A stretch of DNA of 64,000 bases, taken from the NCBI GenBank assembly GCA_963711565.1, contig CAVQEQ010000001.1, forward strand, positions 576,001-640,000, written 5' to 3'. This DNA comes from an uncultured delta proteobacterium. GTDB lineage: Bacteria; Desulfobacterota; Binatia; Binatales; Binataceae. Both the position numbers and the translations under genes were made by a program. Shown here one piece after another: positions 15,270 through 25,867 of this stretch. The first letter of the stretch is position 1. Each line of letters begins with the position of its first letter. Under the pieces are notes generated by a model that saw nothing but the letters and a program-made list of their open reading frames with translations, was not told where the DNA came from and searched no databases.

Positions 15270-16157
15270 ATGGCGGCAACGTCGCTGGAACAGTTCCTCG
15301 AAAAGTACCGCGACACAATTGATCGCCTGCATTCCCTTAGCAACGCCGCTGCGTGGCGCGTCTCACGAACGTCTTTCGCCGCCGCGTTGTGGCGCAGCTT
15401 CGATCGCCGCTTCGGTGCCGATTCGAACGCCGTCACGCGCGCGGAAGCCGTGCGCTTTCTCGACTCTCTGCATGCCGCCGATCTCGCGCTCGCCATCGGA
15501 TGCCGCGACGGCGACGCCAGTGCCTGGCGTCATCTCGTCTCGACCTATCGCGCGCCCATCGACGCGTTCGCACGGGCCGTCCTCGGCAACTCCTCGCGCG
15601 CGAGCGAGATCGCCGATTCGTTGTGGGCCGACCTCTACGGTTTGCGCTCATCCGACGGCGCGCGCCGCTCTCCCCTCGAGCATTACGGCGGCCGTAGCTC
15701 GCTGACGTCGTGGCTCCGCGTCGTCGTCACCCGGCTCGAAGCCGATCGATGGCGTGCGACGCGCCGCATGGAACCGCTGGACGAGGAGCGCGACGGCGGT
15801 TCCGGCTTGCTCGCCGACGGGACCGATTCGCCCGACCCCGATCGCGCACGGTTACTTGGCGCCCTCGAACGATCTCTCGCCGAAGCTTTGAACGCGCTGT
15901 CGCCGGACAACCGTCTGCGCCTCTCATATTATTATGTGCAGAATCTGACGCTCGCCCAGACCGCCGCTCTGCTCGGCGAGCATGAGTCGAGTGCGTCGCG
16001 CAATCTCGCCCGCGCCCGCACGGCGATTCGCGAGTGTGTCACCCGCACGCTGCGCCGCGAGTATCGCTTCAGTGACGATCAAATCAGCCAATGCTTCGAG
16101 TATGCGACCGGCGATTGGCCGTTCGACCTCGGCCGCATGCTCGCACTGGGAAAATGA
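15270..16157 (+). CDS. ECF-type sigma-70 factor with N-terminal extension
   Basis: ADLALAIGC..GD..AW, region 2 (YGGRSSLTSWLRVV), region 4 HTH (LTLAQTAALLGEHESSASRNLARAR). Confidence 0.85.
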   Translation: MAATSLEQFLEKYRDTIDRLHSLSNAAAWRVSRTSFAAALWRSFDRRFGADSNAVTRAEAVRFLDSLHAADLALAIGCRDGDASAWRHLVSTYRAPIDAFARAVLGNSSRASEIADSLWADLYGLRSSDGARRSPLEHYGGRSSLTSWLRVVVTRLEADRWRATRRMEPLDEERDGGSGLLADGTDSPDPDRARLLGALERSLAEALNALSPDNRLRLSYYYVQNLTLAQTAALLGEHESSASRNLARARTAIRECVTRTLRREYRFSDDQISQCFEYATGDWPFDLGRMLALGK

Positions 16158-17545
16158 TGCCCGACGACAAGACCCCGCACAGCCGCCTTGACGCGATGAT
16201 TCGCAGGAGTCTCGCATCCGGCCTCGACACCTCGGGCGCACAATGCCCCGACGCCGACCTGCTCGCAGCGTTCGCCGAAAACACGCTCGCCCCCGACGAG
16301 CGCACGAAATGGAATTCGCACATCGCCGGATGCGCGATATGCCAGCGCCAGCTTGCGGCGCTCGCCCGAGCCGGTGCGCTCGGCGCTACGCGTTCATCTG
16401 CTCCCCAAGTCGAAACCGTTGACGCCGAAGAGGCACGCCAGGAAGCCGGCGGTTTCTGGCCCGCAATTCGCAGCTTCGTACGATTCATGATCGGTCCGTT
16501 CCCGCTCTCGGTCGCCCTTCACGTCGCGCTGCTGCTCGTTCTGATCATCACCATCCACGAGCAGCGCGGGCGCGAGTTGATCATGGTGAACCTCGAAGCG
16601 GGCGGCGGCGGCGGTGGCGGCAACGAGATGCAGGATCTCGACATGCCCGAAGTGCCGATGCCCGACACGGCGCCGCAGCAGATGGAGCAGCCGACCGCAG
16701 TGGATACCTCGCAAGCCGTGGGCCTCGCCAGTGACTACGTCCGCGCAGCCGGCGGCGGCGGTATCGGCATCGGTCGCGGCGGCGGCATGGGCTCGGGCTA
16801 CGGCCACGGCATCGGCTCGGGCTTCGGCGGGTTCATCGGCGAGTTGCGCCGCAAAGGACTCGACGTGGTGCTGGTGATCGACGGCACCGGCTCGATGCGC
16901 CTGATCATCGACAACGTCAAAGCCAAGATGCAGCAGCTGACGCAGTCGATTCACCGGCTCGTGCCGATCGCCCGCATCGGAATAATCGTGTTCGGCGGCA
17001 AGGGTGAGAAGATGGATATCCAGCCGCTGACGCTATCGCCGCAGAAGCTGAGCACCTTCCTGGAAGGCATCCAGGCAAAGGGCGGCGGCGAATGGGAAGA
17101 GGACACGCTCGGCGCGGTCCAGACCGGGATCGACAAGATGGACTGGAAGCCATACGCCAAGAAGGTGGTGGTGCTGGTCGGCGACTCTCCCCCGCGCACG
17201 GAGGACTTTGCGCCGCTGCTCGCGCTGATCCGGCAGTTCAAAGCCAACAACGGGACGTTCAACACGGTGGACGTCGCGGCGGAGGAGCACGAGCGGTTCG
17301 AGCGCGAATTCTGGCTGAAGGTGCATCGAGAGGAGCCGCCGAAGATCTCGGCGTTGCCAGCGTTCTATCGACAGACTCAAGCCGCGTACAAAGTGCTCGC
17401 CACCGCTGGCGGCGGCTCGATGAAGTCGTTGAGCAAGGACGCGCACATCAACCAGCAGGTGCTAATCCTCGCCTTCGGCGACCAATGGCAATCGCAAGTC
17501 GCCGCCTTCGCCCGCGGCCTGAACAACACCAGCTCAGGTCCGTAG
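16154..17545 (+). CDS. zf-HC2 (ZAS) anti-sigma domain - TM - vWA domain fusion protein
   Basis: ATGA overlap with the sigma stop; HIAGCAIC (HxxxCxxC); TM with SVALH; Gly-rich linker; MIDAS DGTGS, GGGEWEE, VGDSPP. Confidence 0.85.
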   Translation: MMPDDKTPHSRLDAMIRRSLASGLDTSGAQCPDADLLAAFAENTLAPDERTKWNSHIAGCAICQRQLAALARAGALGATRSSAPQVETVDAEEARQEAGGFWPAIRSFVRFMIGPFPLSVALHVALLLVLIITIHEQRGRELIMVNLEAGGGGGGGNEMQDLDMPEVPMPDTAPQQMEQPTAVDTSQAVGLASDYVRAAGGGGIGIGRGGGMGSGYGHGIGSGFGGFIGELRRKGLDVVLVIDGTGSMRLIIDNVKAKMQQLTQSIHRLVPIARIGIIVFGGKGEKMDIQPLTLSPQKLSTFLEGIQAKGGGEWEEDTLGAVQTGIDKMDWKPYAKKVVVLVGDSPPRTEDFAPLLALIRQFKANNGTFNTVDVAAEEHERFEREFWLKVHREEPPKISALPAFYRQTQAAYKVLATAGGGSMKSLSKDAHINQQVLILAFGDQWQSQVAAFARGLNNTSSGP

Positions 17546-17598: not shown

Positions 17599-17770
17599 GT
17601 AGGACACAGCGCGGCAGAATCGCTGTTCCCCCTTTCCATCTGGAAAGGGGGCGAGGGGGATAGGACAGCCCGCACCGCATCGCTCTATTGCTTCCCCTTC
17701 CCCATTCCTGGGGAAGGGGCTAGGGGTTAGGGCTCTGCCAGAAGTGGCACTGGCTTCAGCCAGTGATTCT
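17599..17770 (+). repeat. Cluster of REP-like palindromes (GTAG-type, two family A copies, one GTGG-type)
   Basis: CCCCCTTTCCA-TC-TGGAAAGGGGG; CCCCTTCCCCA-TTCC-TGGGGAAGGGG; GTGG-CACTGGCT-TC-AGCCAGTG. Confidence 0.7.
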
Positions 17771-17801
17771 CTGCTTCGGCCGAAATCCTGTCCGCACACA
17801 G

Positions 17802-18194
17802 CGATGACTTCGTCACACAGACCGACGGTTCAGGACGAGGTAGCGCTACAACGGAGCGCAATGCTAGCACAATCAGGAATCACTGGATGCAGGGGTCACC
17901 CCTGCCTCTTAATCTTGCTCCCCTTCCCGCGAGGACCGAAAAAAGGGGCCGGGGGTTAGGTTCTTGATGAGCGTGCAAACAAACGGTCAGCGACGATTCA
18001 CGGTGCTCGAGCTGCCGTTGTTGGAGATGCCGACCAGCTCGTCGGCGCAGTCATAGCCGTAGTTAAAGGCCGCTTGGGACGCTGGCGTCATGGTGCTAAT
18101 CGCGCTCGCGACAACCGCCCTCGCCGGCCCGGCCCTCGCCTACAAGGCAATAGTAATGGACCAGCCCCAGGCCGACCCAGCCGCCGTCTTCTAA
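17802..18194 (+). pseudogene. Internally deleted copy of the 20887-21810 region (membrane-protein gene plus upstream DNA)
   Basis: 17802-17906 matches 20887-20998, 17970-18017 matches 21013-21060, and about 18094-18185 matches about 21716-21806. Confidence 0.85.
18002..18100 (-). pseudogene. Isolated RHS/YD-repeat fragment
   Basis: Minus strand reads ISTMTPASQAAFNYGYDCADELVGISNNGSSST (Y.YD..D.L..I pattern). Confidence 0.6.
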
Positions 18195-18607
18195 CCCGGG
18201 CTCCTCTGATGCCAGCGATGATACACACTATAAGCCGCTCCTACGCAGATCAGTACGACAGGGGTGAGTGTCGAGAAAAGCACGAAGCCCAGGCGAGTCT
18301 CCAGGTCCGGAATCCACGACGTCAAAAGTTCAGAACATGAGAGGATGACGAGCGCTAACGCAATGGACATCGCAGTAACAAACGCTCCCCACTCATCCGG
18401 AAAATAAGAACGAAAGAAGGTGGGCAGAGCCGCAGAAAGTATGAGACCTGCCGTGTACTCCGCCTCGATGAGTCCCGTCAAAGTCGAAACCGTTAAGCCT
18501 ATCAACAGGCCCACAAGGCCGAGATAGAACTCGAGCCAAAGCGGAAAACGCCCCTTATGGTTCAGTTTGCGACTCAATGCACTCAAACTCCTTGGCCTGC
18601 GCCGCAA
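18191..18607 (-). CDS. Four-TM protein, putative immunity protein for the RHS C-terminal module
   Basis: Directly downstream of and overlapping the toxin-like ORF; hydrophobic; lower GC; start uncertain. Confidence 0.6.
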   Translation of the reverse strand: MRRRPRSLSALSRKLNHKGRFPLWLEFYLGLVGLLIGLTVSTLTGLIEAEYTAGLILSAALPTFFRSYFPDEWGAFVTAMSIALALVILSCSELLTSWIPDLETRLGFVLFSTLTPVVLICVGAAYSVYHRWHQRSPG

Positions 18608-19502
18608 TTTGACATTTGGCCAAAACGCTGACTGACGCAGTAGCAGTCATTGTCGCAACGCGGCCGCCGCATACGAGAAGGTCAGCTCCGTCTGTGAAAT
18701 ACGCGCCGATTCCGCATGCAAGCTCTGCAGCTCCTCCTAGCAAACCCACTTTCGCTTCTGCGTTCTTCGAGCAATCTGCCATGTCAACTATGTATTGCTG
18801 CTGGCAAGATAATTTGGGCTGTTCCTTCTGCAGCGGACGCGCATTGGGGCAGGGAGCAGGATCTCCGCAGAATTGCGGCTCGCCTGAAGACTCCATCGTT
18901 GGAATCTCACCGTCGGTGATACCCAAAATAACTGGATACAGCGGGTGGCGGCCGTGGAGCAACTGACGTGGAGTCGGAGGAGCGCTGTCGCCGCCGCCAA
19001 AAATCGCATCAAAGATGTCGAACAGACCAAACGCGGCAGTCACGATGATTCCTGGGATCGCCCCGGCGGCCCAAGCCGCAGCAAAGATCTTCGGCTCCAG
19101 CACTGCCAATATTCCGGTCAGTGCGAGATTAGAGGCACTCGAAGCGGCTGCAGCTATTCCGGCATCCCCCACGGCAGTTGGGACACCGCCGCTGCCCGAT
19201 GGCCGCGCGATCGCATTGCCCGCAGGGCCGCTGTTGCTGCCGCTGGTACTGGTGGCGCTGGTCTCGGACAACGAGCGGACCAGTTGCGGACTATAGAACT
19301 GTCCGCCGCCTGAATAGTAGTACGTCCCCGGATCGGTATATTCCTTCTCCATGCCTTGGTACAGGAACGGCCAATCGTTCGCCGTGCCGCTCACCGTCGG
19401 CGTTCCTGACGGATCGTAGGTGTACGTTGTCGCCGGCGGCGAGTCCACATTCGCGGCGTTCACCAGACCGAGCGTTGACCCGTCCGCGTCGAGCAGCGGC
19501 AC
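18555..19502 (-). CDS. Orphan RHS core fragment with variable Cys-rich C-terminal tip
   Basis: LDADGST, YTYDPSG, PFLYQGMEKE and YYY...QFYSPQLVRSLS match the RHS-associated core; begins abruptly 3 nt after the upstream stop. Confidence 0.75.
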   Translation of the reverse strand: MPLLDADGSTLGLVNAANVDSPPATTYTYDPSGTPTVSGTANDWPFLYQGMEKEYTDPGTYYYSGGGQFYSPQLVRSLSETSATSTSGSNSGPAGNAIARPSGSGGVPTAVGDAGIAAAASSASNLALTGILAVLEPKIFAAAWAAGAIPGIIVTAAFGLFDIFDAIFGGGDSAPPTPRQLLHGRHPLYPVILGITDGEIPTMESSGEPQFCGDPAPCPNARPLQKEQPKLSCQQQYIVDMADCSKNAEAKVGLLGGAAELACGIGAYFTDGADLLVCGGRVATMTATASVSVLAKCQIAAQAKEFECIESQTEP

Positions 19503-19505
19503 CGT

Positions 19506-19754
19506 TTACGGTTTTGGAGGTGGATCACTCTTAAGTTCATCCGGCACGATGTCTGGGTACATTCGGTACAGGTCATTCGAAAAATTTATCGTATCGACCA
19601 AACATTGGCCGATTAGGCCTAGATACTTATGCCTTTCCTCTGCCGATATGTTGCCTCGCGCAACGTTGTTACTCATATAATCCGAGATCGAGCCAAGGCT
19701 GGCACGGACTCCTGCCAAAAGCGAATCAATTCTTAGTGCAAAATCTCGTTTCAT
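19506..19754 (-). CDS. 82-aa helical protein, putative immunity protein
   Basis: Low GC; GAGG RBS; lies between the two toxin-like modules. Confidence 0.6.
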   Translation of the reverse strand: MKRDFALRIDSLLAGVRASLGSISDYMSNNVARGNISAEERHKYLGLIGQCLVDTINFSNDLYRMYPDIVPDELKSDPPPKP

Positions 19755-19817
19755 TTCGACCTGTTCCTCGTTTCACGAATTGCAAACATCTCATCACGAT
19801 CGGGTCATAGGCTCAAC

Positions 19818-20415
19818 TCAGAAGCCAGCAGCGAAGCCCAATGCTCTAGCTAAGCTCGGCAGTAAAGGTATGACGACCCACCAAGGCGATATCTTCGGTA
19901 CTTGAAAATTAGAAGAGCTGTCCGGAACTGTATTGTGGTTCCGTGGGAAATAGGGCCTCCATTCTGGATAATCACCCGTCCCCATACATTGATTGTAGCA
20001 CCTATAGAACCACATTGACTGATCGGGCGCTTTGTCTCTATTTATTCCCCGCTCCAGCGCCAAATCTGTGCATCGTGCCTGGCACCATTGTGCGTTTCCG
20101 GGACCGTCGCTGGTATTGTCGACAATTTGTTGGAGGGGTGCTGGATTGCACGGCGTCGATGGAGCCGTAGGTTCAGATTCGGTCGATGCCGAGGAGCTTT
20201 CGGTTGGGGTTTCGCTAGGCCGAATCTGCAAAATCTGGTCGTACAGCGGGTGGCGGCCATGGATCATCTGGCGCGGGATCTCCAGGCTACTGCCGCCGCC
20301 TCCGAATAAGTCGTCGAAAAGCTCATACAGACCAAACGTGGCTGCCGCTAAAGCAACATATTCAACAATCGTAGTGAGAGTCGTAGAATCGATATTGGTT
20401 GACTCGCTATTAGAG
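19818..20415 (-). pseudogene. Second orphan toxin C-terminal module (5'-truncated)
   Basis: Shares FGL...FD..FGGG.S....PRQ..HGRHPLY..IL.I...E.PT..SS with 18555..19502 and then diverges; no credible start. Confidence 0.7.
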
Positions 20416-20877
20416 CGCCGGATGCGTGCGCATAGAGCCTGGACCAACTGCCGCTCAGCTGCCACTCATACTCGGCTGTCTTGGCCGCGCCGTTCATGTC
20501 GATGCGATGCTTCATGGGCAGGCAGACATAGTTCTCTCCATACGCAAATCGAGCGATCCGTGCGACTGCTCGTTTGGGAACAATCTCGGCAATAAAAACC
20601 ACACCTCTGCGATCCTCACATCATGTTCTTTGCGGCGAACGTAGAATCGCAGGTTCACCTCATCAAAATCGGTATGAAAGGGAATAGGAACATATCCAAA
20701 GAGCTTTGTGCGGCAGAACCGGAAGCCCACCAGGCTGACGTATGTCCTTCCCTCAAATGAGTCCAGCACGGTCCCCGCCGGAACATGGGCGTCCAGGAGT
20801 TTCGCATCAACCTCGTGATTCAACATCACCAAGTCTAGCCACTCGGCGGAAAGGAAGACGCGTTTTCGCTGGCCCAT
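20416..20877 (-). pseudogene. DUF2071/YqjF family gene, frameshifted and 3'-truncated
   Basis: FLSAEW.DLVMLN, YVSLVGFRF, EVNLRFYVRR; continues in another frame (VFIAEIVPK...YGENY) after about 20605; cut off by the toxin module. Confidence 0.8.
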
Positions 20878-21015
20878 TTGTTCGACCGATGACTTCATCA
20901 CACAGACCGACGGGTCAGGGTGATCGCACGAGGTAGCGCGACAACGGAGCGCGATGCTAGCACAATCAGGAATAACTGGGTGCAGGGGTCATCCTGCCGC
21001 GTTGAAGTGGTAAGC

Positions 21016-21831
21016 GTGCAAACAAACGGTCAGCGACGATTCACGGTGGTCGAGCTGCCGGTATTTCCAATCGTAATGGAATCGTTGCTGATGCCGTTCC
21101 GCTATCTGCCCGAGCTGGCGAAATTCGGCTGGATTCCCTTCGCCGCGATTCTGGCGATCGATCTCATCTGCTATGCCCTCCTGCGCGAGGACGTTTCCAG
21201 GAGCGTGACCAGCAGTCTGATGACGCTCGCGCATTTCGTTCTGTTCACGCCGTTCTCCGTGGCATGGACGAAGCTCGCCGTCAGAGGCCCTCAAGCAGTC
21301 TCGAAGCATCCGCAGTTCTTCTACTCGCGCACGCAATGGTTTTATCTGCTGGCAGGCGCAGCGATGATGGTGGCGCTCCTGGTTCTCGTCGGCATTCCGT
21401 TCGTCGTCGTTCGTTACGGACAGCGAAACTTTGAGAGCCAGATCACACTGCTCGGAGAAACCGGTATGATGCTGGGAATCGGCCTTTACGTTATCGGATA
21501 CGTCCGCCTGGCTTTTGTCTTCCCCGCGATTGCGATCGGCAGGTACGCCGGCATCCGGGCTGCCTGGAGGCAAACGGCAGGAAATATCGAGCGCCTCGCG
21601 GCAATTATCGTGCTCACGCTCCTTCCCTACTGGATCGTCCGCCAGGCGTTCTCATGGTACATGGGCTATCACCCGCCCGGCGTCATCGAGGCGTTCCGCG
21701 GATGCATCGACATGCTGCTAATCGCGCTCGCGACGACCGCCCTCGCCGGCCCAGCCCTCGCCTACAAGTCGATAGTAATGGACCAGCCCCAGGCCGACCC
21801 CGCCGCCCAATCAATCACCGCCGCCCGCTAG
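21016..21831 (+). CDS. Multi-pass membrane protein (GPDPase membrane-domain-like)
   Basis: About six hydrophobic helices; RLAFVFPAIAI...IRAAWRQTAGN pattern; GTG start. Confidence 0.7.
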   Translation: MQTNGQRRFTVVELPVFPIVMESLLMPFRYLPELAKFGWIPFAAILAIDLICYALLREDVSRSVTSSLMTLAHFVLFTPFSVAWTKLAVRGPQAVSKHPQFFYSRTQWFYLLAGAAMMVALLVLVGIPFVVVRYGQRNFESQITLLGETGMMLGIGLYVIGYVRLAFVFPAIAIGRYAGIRAAWRQTAGNIERLAAIIVLTLLPYWIVRQAFSWYMGYHPPGVIEAFRGCIDMLLIALATTALAGPALAYKSIVMDQPQADPAAQSITAAR

Positions 21832-21873: not shown

Positions 21874-22011
21874 TCCTCTCCCAGGATGGGAGAGGATCGA
21901 AGGTGAGGGTCCTTATACAGCGCGCGATTTTTTTCGCGCGCGATTCAAGATTCTGCCTCTTATCTTTCATCCGGTTCCCCTCTCCTGAAGGGAGAGGTGT
22001 TAGGGGTGAGG
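21874..22011 (+). repeat. Two REP-like hairpins, family A variant (CCTCTCC-N-GGAGAGG...GGTGAGG)
   Basis: Located between convergent genes; TCCTCTCCCA-GGA-TGGGAGAGGA and CCTCTCC-TGAAG-GGAGAGG. Confidence 0.7.
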
Positions 22012-22047: not shown

Positions 22048-24144
22048 TCACCCGCCATTCCATCCGCGGTCCCGCAATGCCTCGAGCGCGATTGCAAGAT
22101 TATTTTGTGTCTTCTTCCAGTCACTCGGTAACTTGTCTTTGGTCAATACGGTCAGCGCCTGATGATAGTTATCGACCGCCGCTTCCAGGTATTTGACTCC
22201 CGGCCCACGCATGCCGAGTCCTGACAAGGCGTCCCCAAGATCGCTCTTGGCTCGTGCCCATAGGATTGGATCGCGGTCGGGTCTGAAGACTTCGAGCGCC
22301 TCGTTGTAATTCTGAATCGCCTGCTCGAAGCACCAGGATTCATTGGTGCTCTCTCCCATCTCGTCCAACGCATTGCCGAGCCCGGCTTTCAACGTCGCCC
22401 ACGCGATCTGATCGCGCTCACGCGATTGCTCTTCGAGACTGGCCCGAAACGCCTTTACGGCTGCCTCCGGATAACGCGGGTTGGGCTGGACATCGTTCAA
22501 ACTCAGCAGTTCGTTGCCAAGGACGGCCTGCATAGCCGCCCAGCGATTCCGATCCCACTCGCGCGGAAATCCATCCAGTGTTTGCCTGCTGATCGCCACC
22601 GACTCCTTGAGATCTTCGACGTCCGAGCGAGCCTGGCCGCGTAACTCGAGAGCCTCTGCGAGTTGCGCTTGAGCGTCTGCCCAGAGCATCGGATCCGACT
22701 GCTTCGTGTAAACTTTTAGCGCCTCTCTGAAGGCCTCGATCGCATTATCGTAACCACCTGCGTTATCCTCGCGATCCGCCAGCCCGCAAAGCACAGATCC
22801 CAGCTGTGTCTGAGCCGCCGCCCAGCTCATCGGGTAGAACTTAACGTCGAAGCCTTTCACTGCGGCGCGACTATAGTCCGCCGCTTGATGCAGGCTCTCA
22901 GTTCCTGCTTCATGATTTGCAATTTGCTGGAACGTGCGTCCGAGCTGCAGTTGAACCGTCGCCGAATCGAGCGAATCGGAACGCCCCTGGTACACCCCCA
23001 ACGCATCCTTGTATGCGGCCACCGCCTCCTGCAAAGGCCCCACTTGAGCATTGAGAGCTGCGATTTGATTCAGCGCCGCGCCCAGGTTGAGCTGCGCCAT
23101 CGCCCACTCCAGCGGATTACGTTCTCGCGTCCAATCTTCCTGCGCTCGCCGAATGTAAGTGACCGCGCTATTCAACGAATCTTCCGACTTGAGTTCGACT
23201 CCCGAGATTCTGCTCGCAATACCGATCGCGAGATTCACGCGGGCGCGTGCGTCGGCCGTCCACGCACCGCTCTTTCGGGGATCGTCGGCGAGCGCGCGAA
23301 TCTCGCGAATTGTAGGTTCGAGCGCATCGCCAAATTTGAACATCCACTGGTGCATCGAGTCCGCGCTTTGCGTTGCTACGATCAGGCCGATCACCTTGCA
23401 TAGGTCGTCCGGCGGCAACTCCGGCAGCTTGAAGTCCGATGGAAGATACACTCCGCCAAATTGCGCATCGGATCCGAATTTCGTCTCGTAAAGCGGCCCA
23501 ACCGCTGGCGGCGATGCGCCGCCCACCCCGCCCCAGATCAATGCCTCCACCCGCACGTTCGTCACCGAGTTGAGCGCATCGAGATGCGCGAGACCCTGCG
23601 GACGGCCCGAAACCGCAATCGTGGAATTCAAAATGACCGGCGTGATGTGCAACCTCGGATCGATATTCGACAGCGCGTCGCGCAGGCGTGCTTCAAGCTG
23701 CTGGCCTTTGTCGCCTTCGAGATGCGCGATCGCAAAGACGACGCGGATGCGCCACTTTTCAACGTCTGGGTACGGAGCCGACGCCTCCGCGATGTCCGCC
23801 GGCGCTTCGCGCAGCACGTTCGGACCCCGCAGATAGATCGAGGTTTGCTGCAGGATCAGCAACGGCAGGCAAACAATCGCCGCGATACCGGCGCCTCGCC
23901 GCACCGCCTTATAGCGCAGCTTGACCCGCCCGATCTGGACGCGCGCCTTATGCCAAAACGTAAGGCCGCACACGATCGCGGCAACCGATCCCGGAATCGC
24001 AGTTACGATCACCAGGTCGACCACCACCCGCGACCGCGGCCAGACGGCCACAACAACCAGCACGATCACGCCGGCAACCGCAAGTGAATCAGCAAGATTC
24101 ACCCCCGGAAACCGCTCAAAAAAATCCCGCCGCAGACTCCTCAT
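22048..24144 (-). CDS. Membrane-anchored tetratricopeptide-like repeat protein
   Basis: Three N-terminal TMs; about eight repeats of P..WA..Q..LG..L...........A...Y..AL. Confidence 0.85.
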   Translation of the reverse strand: MRSLRRDFFERFPGVNLADSLAVAGVIVLVVVAVWPRSRVVVDLVIVTAIPGSVAAIVCGLTFWHKARVQIGRVKLRYKAVRRGAGIAAIVCLPLLILQQTSIYLRGPNVLREAPADIAEASAPYPDVEKWRIRVVFAIAHLEGDKGQQLEARLRDALSNIDPRLHITPVILNSTIAVSGRPQGLAHLDALNSVTNVRVEALIWGGVGGASPPAVGPLYETKFGSDAQFGGVYLPSDFKLPELPPDDLCKVIGLIVATQSADSMHQWMFKFGDALEPTIREIRALADDPRKSGAWTADARARVNLAIGIASRISGVELKSEDSLNSAVTYIRRAQEDWTRERNPLEWAMAQLNLGAALNQIAALNAQVGPLQEAVAAYKDALGVYQGRSDSLDSATVQLQLGRTFQQIANHEAGTESLHQAADYSRAAVKGFDVKFYPMSWAAAQTQLGSVLCGLADREDNAGGYDNAIEAFREALKVYTKQSDPMLWADAQAQLAEALELRGQARSDVEDLKESVAISRQTLDGFPREWDRNRWAAMQAVLGNELLSLNDVQPNPRYPEAAVKAFRASLEEQSRERDQIAWATLKAGLGNALDEMGESTNESWCFEQAIQNYNEALEVFRPDRDPILWARAKSDLGDALSGLGMRGPGVKYLEAAVDNYHQALTVLTKDKLPSDWKKTQNNLAIALEALRDRGWNGG

Positions 24145-24208
24145 TGTGCCTTAACGCCGGTGATATTAGCGCAATCGCCACGCCTAGCCACATCTCCAGC
24201 CCTTGCTT

Positions 24209-24306
24209 GAAGTGGCACCGGCTTCAGCCGGTGATTCTTTCGCAGCATCAGGGCAGGAAACAAAAAGTCACTGAGTGCAGAGCCTGTCCTGAGCGAAGCC
24301 GAAGGA
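24209..24306 (+). repeat. GTGG-type REP hairpin plus a CCTGTCCTGAGC-N-GCCGAAGG element
   Basis: 24209-24238 is identical to 17741-17770 except for one compensatory base pair. Confidence 0.65.
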
Positions 24307-24679: not shown

Positions 24680-25867
24680 ATGATTCCGATCCTGGTTGTC
24701 TGCCTCGCCGTGTCCGGTTCGATCGTGATCGTAGCCTTCGCATGGACCAGGATTCGCGGCCTTCCTATCGCCCCCTCGATGCCACCCGGTCTGCGCAACG
24801 CGGCCCGCTTTGCCGGCGGCCCGTTTTCGATTTCGATCGCGATCCACCTCGCGATCCTGCTCACGCTCATCGTCACCGTGCATGAGAGCCGCGCGCGCGA
24901 CCTGCTGATCGTCACATGGGAGCCGGGTTCCCTTCGTTCGGTCGAAGAGGCTGAGCCACACGAGATTCCCGACGTGCCGATGCCGGAGTTCAACACCAGG
25001 ATACCCGACGACTCGCCCCAGCCCGTGGACGTAAACAAGGTGCTCGGCGCCAACTCCAGCGCAATCGCCGGAACCTCGTCCCTCAATGGAATCGATATCG
25101 GCCGCGACCTCGTCTCTTACTTGAATCTCCACCCAGGACCCGGCGGCGACGGTGGCGCGAGCTTTCCATGGTTCATCGACGAGCTGCGCCACAAGGGTCT
25201 CGACATCGTGCTGGTGATCGACGGCACCAAGTCGATGGACTTCGTGATGGCTGACGTGAAGGCGCGGATGACGCGGCTCGCGATACGAGTTCGCCAGCTC
25301 GTGCCGATCGCGCGCGTCGGCGTCGTCGTGTTCGGTGGCAAGGGCGAGCCCCTCGACATTCAGCCGCTGACTCTCTCGACCGTAAAACTGCAAACGTTCC
25401 TCGGCTCGATTCAGGCCAAGGGTGGCGGCGAGTGGCAGGAGAACACGCTCGGCGCGGTGCAGGCCGCCGTAAACAAGATGGATTGGAAGCCATACGCGCG
25501 CAAGGTGATCGTGTTGATCGGCGACTCCCCGCCCGAGCAGGAAGACTTCGCCCCTCTGCTCGCGCTGCTCCACGATTTCAGGCGCAACAACGGCACGCTG
25601 AGCGGCGTCGACGTCCAGGCTGAAGAGCATGAGCGCTACGAGCGAGCGTTCTGGATGAAGGTGCATGGCGTCGAGCCGACGCTGGCCGAAATCGGGCCGC
25701 TGCCCGAATTCGCCAGACAGGCCCAGGCCGCCTACAAGGTGCTGGCGGCCGCGGGCGGCGGCTCGGTCCGTAGCCTGAGCCACGACGCCGAGGTCAATCA
25801 GCAGGTGATGATCCTGGTATTCGGTGATAAGTGGCAGGACGAGGTCAGCCGGTTCGCGTCGAGGTAA
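24680..25867 (+). CDS. Membrane-anchored vWA domain protein, paralog of 16154..17545
   Basis: GAAGGAGG RBS; TM with SIAIH; LDIVLVIDGTKSM, AKGGGEW, MDWKPYA, IGDSPP. Confidence 0.85.
   Translation: MIPILVVCLAVSGSIVIVAFAWTRIRGLPIAPSMPPGLRNAARFAGGPFSISIAIHLAILLTLIVTVHESRARDLLIVTWEPGSLRSVEEAEPHEIPDVPMPEFNTRIPDDSPQPVDVNKVLGANSSAIAGTSSLNGIDIGRDLVSYLNLHPGPGGDGGASFPWFIDELRHKGLDIVLVIDGTKSMDFVMADVKARMTRLAIRVRQLVPIARVGVVVFGGKGEPLDIQPLTLSTVKLQTFLGSIQAKGGGEWQENTLGAVQAAVNKMDWKPYARKVIVLIGDSPPEQEDFAPLLALLHDFRRNNGTLSGVDVQAEEHERYERAFWMKVHGVEPTLAEIGPLPEFARQAQAAYKVLAAAGGGSVRSLSHDAEVNQQVMILVFGDKWQDEVSRFASR

Follow-up and report, generated by a model that had tools for sequence, protein, structure and literature searches.

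A probable protease-dead Rhs polymorphic toxin family, apparently undescribed, with exchangeable tips and an almost single-family range

Rhs/YD toxins such as RhsA, Tse5, Rhs1 and RhsP combine a DUF6531 plug and a YD-repeat shell with variable tips, paired genes and orphan cassette arrays, all of which they share with the family described here. In RhsA and Tse5, C-terminal self-cleavage is needed for killing (PMC8765631, PMC10684867), and cleavage-dead Tse5 mutants are reported as non-toxic (PMC10684867). Metazoan teneurins resemble our family in having a YD shell with a core that does not self-cleave (PMC8765631, PMC9935623). Here we analyse a 64,000-nucleotide stretch of DNA from an uncultured delta proteobacterium (the window), which contains two leftover orphan toxin-tip/immunity cassettes in a rearranged array. 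The family to which they belong is very probably a protease-dead polymorphic toxin family. The first-pass annotation of this DNA had proposed an RHS subfamily not yet described, and after a profile search of proteins and a literature search this apparently is so. Literature queries on Binatota with Rhs and on HGRHPLY returned nothing, with most subscription journals outside their reach. We also found no title on a protease-dead family of bacterial Rhs proteins, although the supplements of PMC3482391 and PMC13018210 could list such proteins.

The array comprises four open reading frames on the minus strand, at 19818-20465, 19506-19754, 18555-19502 and 18191-18607, which lie in the predicted order of tip 2, small ORF, core with tip 1, and membrane ORF. 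None of them, the small gene at 19506-19754 included, matches a Pfam or NCBIfam profile, and neither tip has a recognisable domain. Module 1 (18555-19502) contains the last 80 residues of an Rhs core, a Gly/Ser/Thr linker, a hydrophobic segment, a conserved box and a Cys-rich tip, and shares 63% identity with the C-terminal portion of the full-length protein P0001. It is an orphan fragment, holding only these last 80 core residues and opening directly behind the stop codon that precedes it. Its degenerate core end (19263-19502) has Gln at the position of the catalytic Arg, Thr at that of the first Asp and no second DP motif; indeed the core finishes QFYSPQLVRSLSE, confirming the suggested loss of both DP motifs. 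The low-complexity linker and variable hydrophobic segment follow at 18993-19262 and the box, the main crossover zone, at 18885-19031. The membrane protein at 18191-18577, with about three hydrophobic stretches, is likely the tip 1 immunity protein, and a 42% identical homolog follows a related tip at locus L060. An AGGAG 10 nt upstream would make TTG 18577 a more likely start than the longer call at 18607.

Module 2 (19818-20416, minus strand) is a 5'-truncated orphan cassette consisting of the end of a hydrophobic segment, the box and a Cys-containing tip with a hydrophobic tail. P0073 represents a longer form with the same tip, and metagenome contigs of runs X5, X6 and X10 run on at 20416 into this type of longer form. 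The shared box expected from the first-pass annotation is thus present in both modules, and in module 2 (20190-20342) it is made up of an amphipathic FxDLFGGG helix, PRQMIHGRHPLY and a tail. The frame called at 19818-20465 is family-derived only from 20416 down; since the sequence upstream is DUF2071 DNA, GTG 20465 is probably not the true start. Downstream of module 2, the 82-residue soluble gene at 19506-19754 is likely the tip 2 immunity gene, with a 56% identical homolog after a related tip at L029, so that both tip/partner pairs of the window recur elsewhere. This gene is partly and weakly covered by one short RNA-library contig per run in both RNA runs, each of which gave two short contigs, too little for showing expression.

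The flanks of the array carry the marks of rearrangement. A 28-codon Rhs shell remnant (18008-18091, minus strand) matches the start of P0008, and contigs of X5 and X10 run on into shell sequence at 18005. On the other side, a truncated DUF2071 gene (20417-20901, minus strand; PF09844) is fused to module 2, and an X8 contig spans the junction. Two window bases at 20617 are missing from all five DNA runs that cover the site, so the frameshift in DUF2071 probably reflects an error of assembly or is peculiar to this strain. The segment 17802-18185 is a partial duplicate of 20887-21807 (repeat families D1, D2, D3 and D8, 91-94% identical) and forms a rearrangement scar beside the array. A TPR membrane protein gene (22048-24144, minus strand), with a homolog in 12 of the family loci analysed, marks the conserved chromosomal site of the array. 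The toxin fragments of the window, having no shell, are probably silent, while their partner genes may still give immunity, and we infer that these immunity genes are the main reason why the genome retains the array.

Several further features of this neighbourhood were recorded. A sigma-factor-like ORF is followed by a zf-HC2/membrane/vWA protein at 15270-17545, with a second vWA paralog at 24680-25867, and in several relatives, too, such sigma-factor-like/vWA genes lie to either side of the array. Short REP-like repeats at 17700-17960, 21950-22011 and 24204-24238 have deep coverage in metagenome contigs. Elsewhere in the genome there is a second family remnant, a box-less core-end fragment followed by an unrelated ORF (G000:C1:1021928-1022837), and there are canonical DPxG Rhs cassette arrays (G000:C1:812000-835000 and C4:790000-793300), with 12 TIGR03696 matches.

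With module 1 as query we found 18 longer homologs and 104 of similar length, and a profile search returned 144 proteins at E < 1e-30. Seven of the 18 longer homologs are 1,288-1,328 residues long and carry DUF6531 and RHS repeats. Such full-length members, of about 1,300 residues, have a signal-peptide-like N-terminus, DUF6531 and a YD shell, and match PF05593, PF20148 and TIGR01643. All nine complete N-termini examined were signal-peptide-like by our own charge and hydropathy heuristic, which is not SignalP. An AlphaFold model of residues 28-1227 of the L028 protein includes the shell (pTM 0.43), and its best Foldseek matches are Rhs shells (8qjd, 8qjc and 7q97, E 4e-35). The window itself holds core fragments only of the YD shell, and the shell and plug are known from homologs elsewhere: the host genome, at 95% completeness, lacks a full-length member, and such members occur in genomes G023, G095 and G102. 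In G102 the full gene and the array lie on separate contigs, and the array occupies the same TPR-gene site as in the window genome. At L040:571-15072 a full-length member sits amid terminase-, methylase- and recombinase-like ORFs (identified by eye), which suggests carriage on a mobile element.

The box profile matches 30 of 121 genomes of the host's bacterial family, in 11 of 30 genera, and canonical Rhs cores occur in 63 of the 121. Among 301 genomes across the phylum, those outside this family gave only three marginal box matches (E 2e-4 to 7e-4). Homologs are labelled as Candidatus Binatus, Binataceae or unclassified delta proteobacteria, with two of 27 loci labelled Acidobacteriota. This Rhs/YD-shell family is therefore found almost only in one bacterial family, of the Binatota by record labels.

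Evidence for loss of the autoprotease comes from the core ends. Among 223 proteins, the core end could be read in 152, not one of which has a DPxG within 60 residues, in agreement with the predicted absence of this motif from full-length homologs. In 121 proteins with both core and box, Gln stands at the catalytic Arg position in 103 and Arg itself in one; at the first Asp position 108 have Thr, Ala or Val, and Asp never occurs there. The canonical motif's second Arg persists in 94 of 99 rows. As had been suggested for the window, a Gly/Ser linker (77% S/G/T/P/A) occupies the place of the lost second DP motif and leads into the hydrophobic segment. TIGR03696 misses all four full-length members and matches a canonical paralog of the host genome; because the proteins of this family escape both screens, surveys based on TIGR03696 or DPxG would overlook it. 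The family very probably lies within the broad Rhs polymorphic toxin class, but it lacks the residues that define autoproteolytic Rhs proteins. Among ORFs of at least 200 residues beside the full-length genes at L028, L040 and L045, we recognised no dedicated peptidase by eye, and only 5 of 47 tips are followed by Rce1/CAAX genes.

The first-pass annotation had proposed that the box stands instead of DPxG. This part of the proposal does not hold, because one Rhs protein, L154 from genome G011, carries both an intact protease motif and a recognisable box; it is the only one of 24 canonical tails scanned to do so, and the box thus did not arise in place of DPxG. In L154 the box starts about 35 residues past the intact DPxG, on the cargo side, and there is no long linker. 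In members from G113 and G118 the first DP motif survives as a remnant at most, and a Gly linker comes directly after it. We built a tree of 34 rows over about 147 core residues, with 52 candidates left out as short, unanchored or near-copies, the root assumed among the canonical rows, and a bootstrap convergence of 0.988. It forms a ladder of 11 canonical rows, L154, three remnant rows and 19 main rows, and protease loss maps as one change (support 100/97) on the branch common to 22 rows. The tree places L154 as an intermediate in which the box would have been gained first and the protease lost later, as a single sequence that could be recombinant.

The motif loss could in principle reflect decay of dead genes: the window copies are broken fragments, and open frames longer than 1,200 residues were found in only two of the 75 box matches listed. 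However, intact ORFs of about 1,300 residues recur, the loss falls on that one shared branch, and box codons vary synonymously under conserved residues, and we regard decay as extremely improbable.

After the core, the order is linker, variable hydrophobic segment, conserved PRQLxHxRHPLY box and a variable tip of about 100 residues. The hydrophobic segment forms a second polymorphic module, a feature that the first-pass annotation overlooked. Of 121 pre-box segments, 73 reach a 19-residue hydropathy of at least 1.6 and 48 are not strongly hydrophobic; in some homologs the segment gives glycine-zipper Pfam matches below the curated cut-off. As anticipated, no Pfam or NCBIfam model, those of known pre-toxin or processing domains included, matches the box. 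ESM Atlas feature matches to the box reached at most 0.84 and were not usable, nor was anything usable returned for tip 2. AlphaFold modelled the shell of both the L028 and the L154 proteins but gave pLDDT below 50 for all post-core sequence of the L028 model and for the L154 box, so no position or fold is supported for the cargo. We also considered the box as a displaced second half of the Rhs core and rejected it: the expected register scored best, but with a permutation p of 0.16, the HHalign probability was 0.2%, and L154 carries both segments.

A new autoprotease or cleavage signal in place of DPxG would account for the strong conservation of polar box residues across 167 boxes (96% for the Arg and likewise for the second Arg, 89% for the first His; the search pattern itself fixed the second His and the Tyr). 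We think such a role improbable, however, since the box coexists with an intact protease in L154, its His and Tyr vary in the divergent members P0137, P0174, L135, L136 and L139, and it has no fold or family match.

The tips are hypervariable, as had been claimed: across 96 proteins, median identity falls from 32% before the box to 8% in the tips, which form 61 clusters at 50% identity. Pairs of proteins have in common only the pre-box part (23), only the tip (21) or both (2). P0021, for example, joins the pre-box part of module 2 to the tip of module 1, and P0022 and P0023 join the pre-box part of module 1 to other tips. In 27 of 29 pairs with the same pre-box part (pairs that are not independent) the breakpoint falls 5 to 41 residues past the Arg of RHPLY, in the box or its tail, bearing out the view of the box as the crossover point. 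Conspecific metagenome contigs from other studies behave in the same way: those of X6 and X10 depart from the window at 18923 into P0022/P0023-type tails, and one of X8 departs at 18829. A 17-nt exact match between the two window boxes does exist at 18937 and 20242, its only two positions in the 4.84-Mb genome. As a DNA signal or recombination site it is ruled out, with the 17-mer in only 8 of 66 boxes (picked by peptide pattern) and every fixed codon varying synonymously. Given this rarity and synonymous variation, ordinary homologous recombination within a stretch that appears to be conserved for its protein is the best account of tip exchange.

For only 15 of 90 proteins in one scan and 13 of 66 in another, Pfam names a tip domain, many of the matches lying below curated cut-offs; these domains are PLA2, Ntox44, Ntox37, 3D, DPBB, DUF4329/JAB and eCIS_core. 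A search of the Lipocone paper found no mention of Ntox44. The predicted pairing of tips with cognate downstream ORFs is borne out in 58 cassettes with such an ORF, where it is common to 8 of 11 tip-similar pairs and to 24 of 1,642 others, pairs again not being independent. Orphan cassette arrays also occur at L004, L005, L009 and L025. Of 47 partners, 17 have a Pfam match, including Rce1/CAAX (5), DUF6968 (2), HEAT (2), TPR (2) and DUF4279 (1), families that we take to be immunity proteins. Odd genes in the immunity position include an FHA domain (L001:3089-3616), a ClpX-type zinc finger (L005:15322-15591) and a proteasome-subunit-like gene (L046:2850-3422). The soluble downstream genes (the tip 2 partner, DUF6968, HEAT and DUF4279) suggest that some tips reach the cytoplasm. 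From such sequence patterns, we infer that the tips are toxic and that each is countered by its own partner. Known enzyme domains are absent from most tips, and there are many Cys-rich tips and many membrane-protein partners, which would also suit a shift from killing to recognition or adhesion, with tips as ligands and membrane partners as receptors, as in the teneurin transition. Yet domains of the phospholipase A2, lytic transglycosylase, Ntox37, Ntox44 and JAB-like types occur among the tips, and orphan arrays with one partner per tip follow the polymorphic toxin pattern, which leaves such repurposing very improbable.

Self-cleavage has been lost but tips and partners still diversify, so the cargo must be freed or used in another way. 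The explanation that we favour, at close to an even chance, is delivery of cargo uncut on a tether or cut in trans, with the segment and box as the means of membrane entry. The full-length protein would likely be exported by Sec with its cargo packed uncut in the shell; the cargo would likely then be paid out on the Gly/Ser tether, or after a cut by another protease, and the hydrophobic segment and box are predicted to act as a membrane-entry module. Export route, cargo location and way of release are all putative, as is the processing or translocation role that the first-pass annotation gave to the box. A tether is supported by the linker of early-branching members, directly after the remnant first motif, and by L154, which has no long linker; the box of L154, on the cargo side of DPxG, is where a pre-toxin element is expected. 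Total cargo is narrowly bounded at 22-26 kDa (108 proteins). Counting against this mechanism, a 24-kDa cargo of about 29,500 cubic angstrom nearly fills the cavity of shells this size, reported as roughly 32,000 cubic angstrom (PMC10684867), and size therefore does not decide between a tether and external display. The tether must also do what cleavage-dead Tse5 cannot, because those mutants are non-toxic.

External display would place the linker and segment inside the shell, with the chain passing through the wall, the box latching it from outside and the tip exposed, much as in teneurins and SGS1; the tip would then act on the envelope or be clipped by an outside protease. Metazoan teneurins are protease-dead YD shells, with about 90 residues inside and a toxin-like domain outside (PMC8765631, PMC9935623). 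The median core-to-box stretch of 115 residues (about 9 kDa) would easily fit inside, many tips are envelope enzymes (PLA2, 3D, DPBB), and 62 of 121 proteins have at least four Cys. However, the distance from box to C-terminus is capped (interquartile range 125-140, maximum 160 residues), which is needless for an external domain, the box of L154 starts only about 35 residues past its intact DPxG, and the low post-core pLDDT means that structural models give no backing. We consider this arrangement, the main rival, rather unlikely. The family bears on how Sec-exported Rhs toxins outside the T6SS bring cargo into targets, and on how a cleaving toxin shell turns into an uncleaved teneurin-type protein. 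The graded intermediates make both questions testable. The family may be an independent bacterial repeat of the teneurin transition, in which a box was gained first, the supposedly essential autoprotease was discarded later and two independently swappable modules, in this proposal the membrane segment and the toxin tip, are delivered uncleaved, with living intermediates that preserve each step; this is a tentative reading, and we lean slightly against it.

Compared with canonical Rhs toxins, our family has no Arg/Asp/Asp autoprotease and no TIGR03696 match, has a predicted signal peptide rather than PAAR/VgrG, and carries a linker, a hydrophobic segment and the box ahead of its tip, with the crossover about 115 residues past the core end. 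The PAAR/VgrG link of T6SS Rhs effectors was not found, the nine N-termini being signal-like and VgrG occurring in none of the five genomes tested, with a positive E. coli control. Also similar are the canonical signal-peptide Rhs proteins of the same bacterial family (for example L090:5595-9185 in the host genome), which have a signal-like N-terminus, 29% shell identity and tips of like size (median 117 residues); they differ in keeping both DP motifs, in matching TIGR03696 and in lacking the box in 23 of 24 tails. At L090:5595-9867 (minus strand) this full-length canonical protein follows a small YD-repeat gene with an Ig-like lipoprotein-type match (NF047769, below cut-off), possibly an accessory subunit. 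The bacterial teneurin-like proteins (BiTLP, PMC13018210) share YD shells and toxic C-termini of diverse kinds, one of them hydrophobic and membrane-active, whereas such proteins retain two DPxG motifs, cleave and have other N-terminal domains. Mosquito SGS1 (PMC9935623) likewise has hydrophobic helices past the core, followed by a toxin-like domain that a protease acting in trans releases, but it is far larger and keeps each of the three catalytic residues. In contrast to teneurins, the family has no FN-plug, NHL or EGF domains and has polymorphic tips with partner genes; its full-length members, compared with teneurins and teneurin-like proteins, consist only of DUF6531 and RHS repeats, with the shell beginning near residue 60. 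Like metazoan teneurins it has lost self-cleavage, a loss that appears to have occurred independently, inside one bacterial family.
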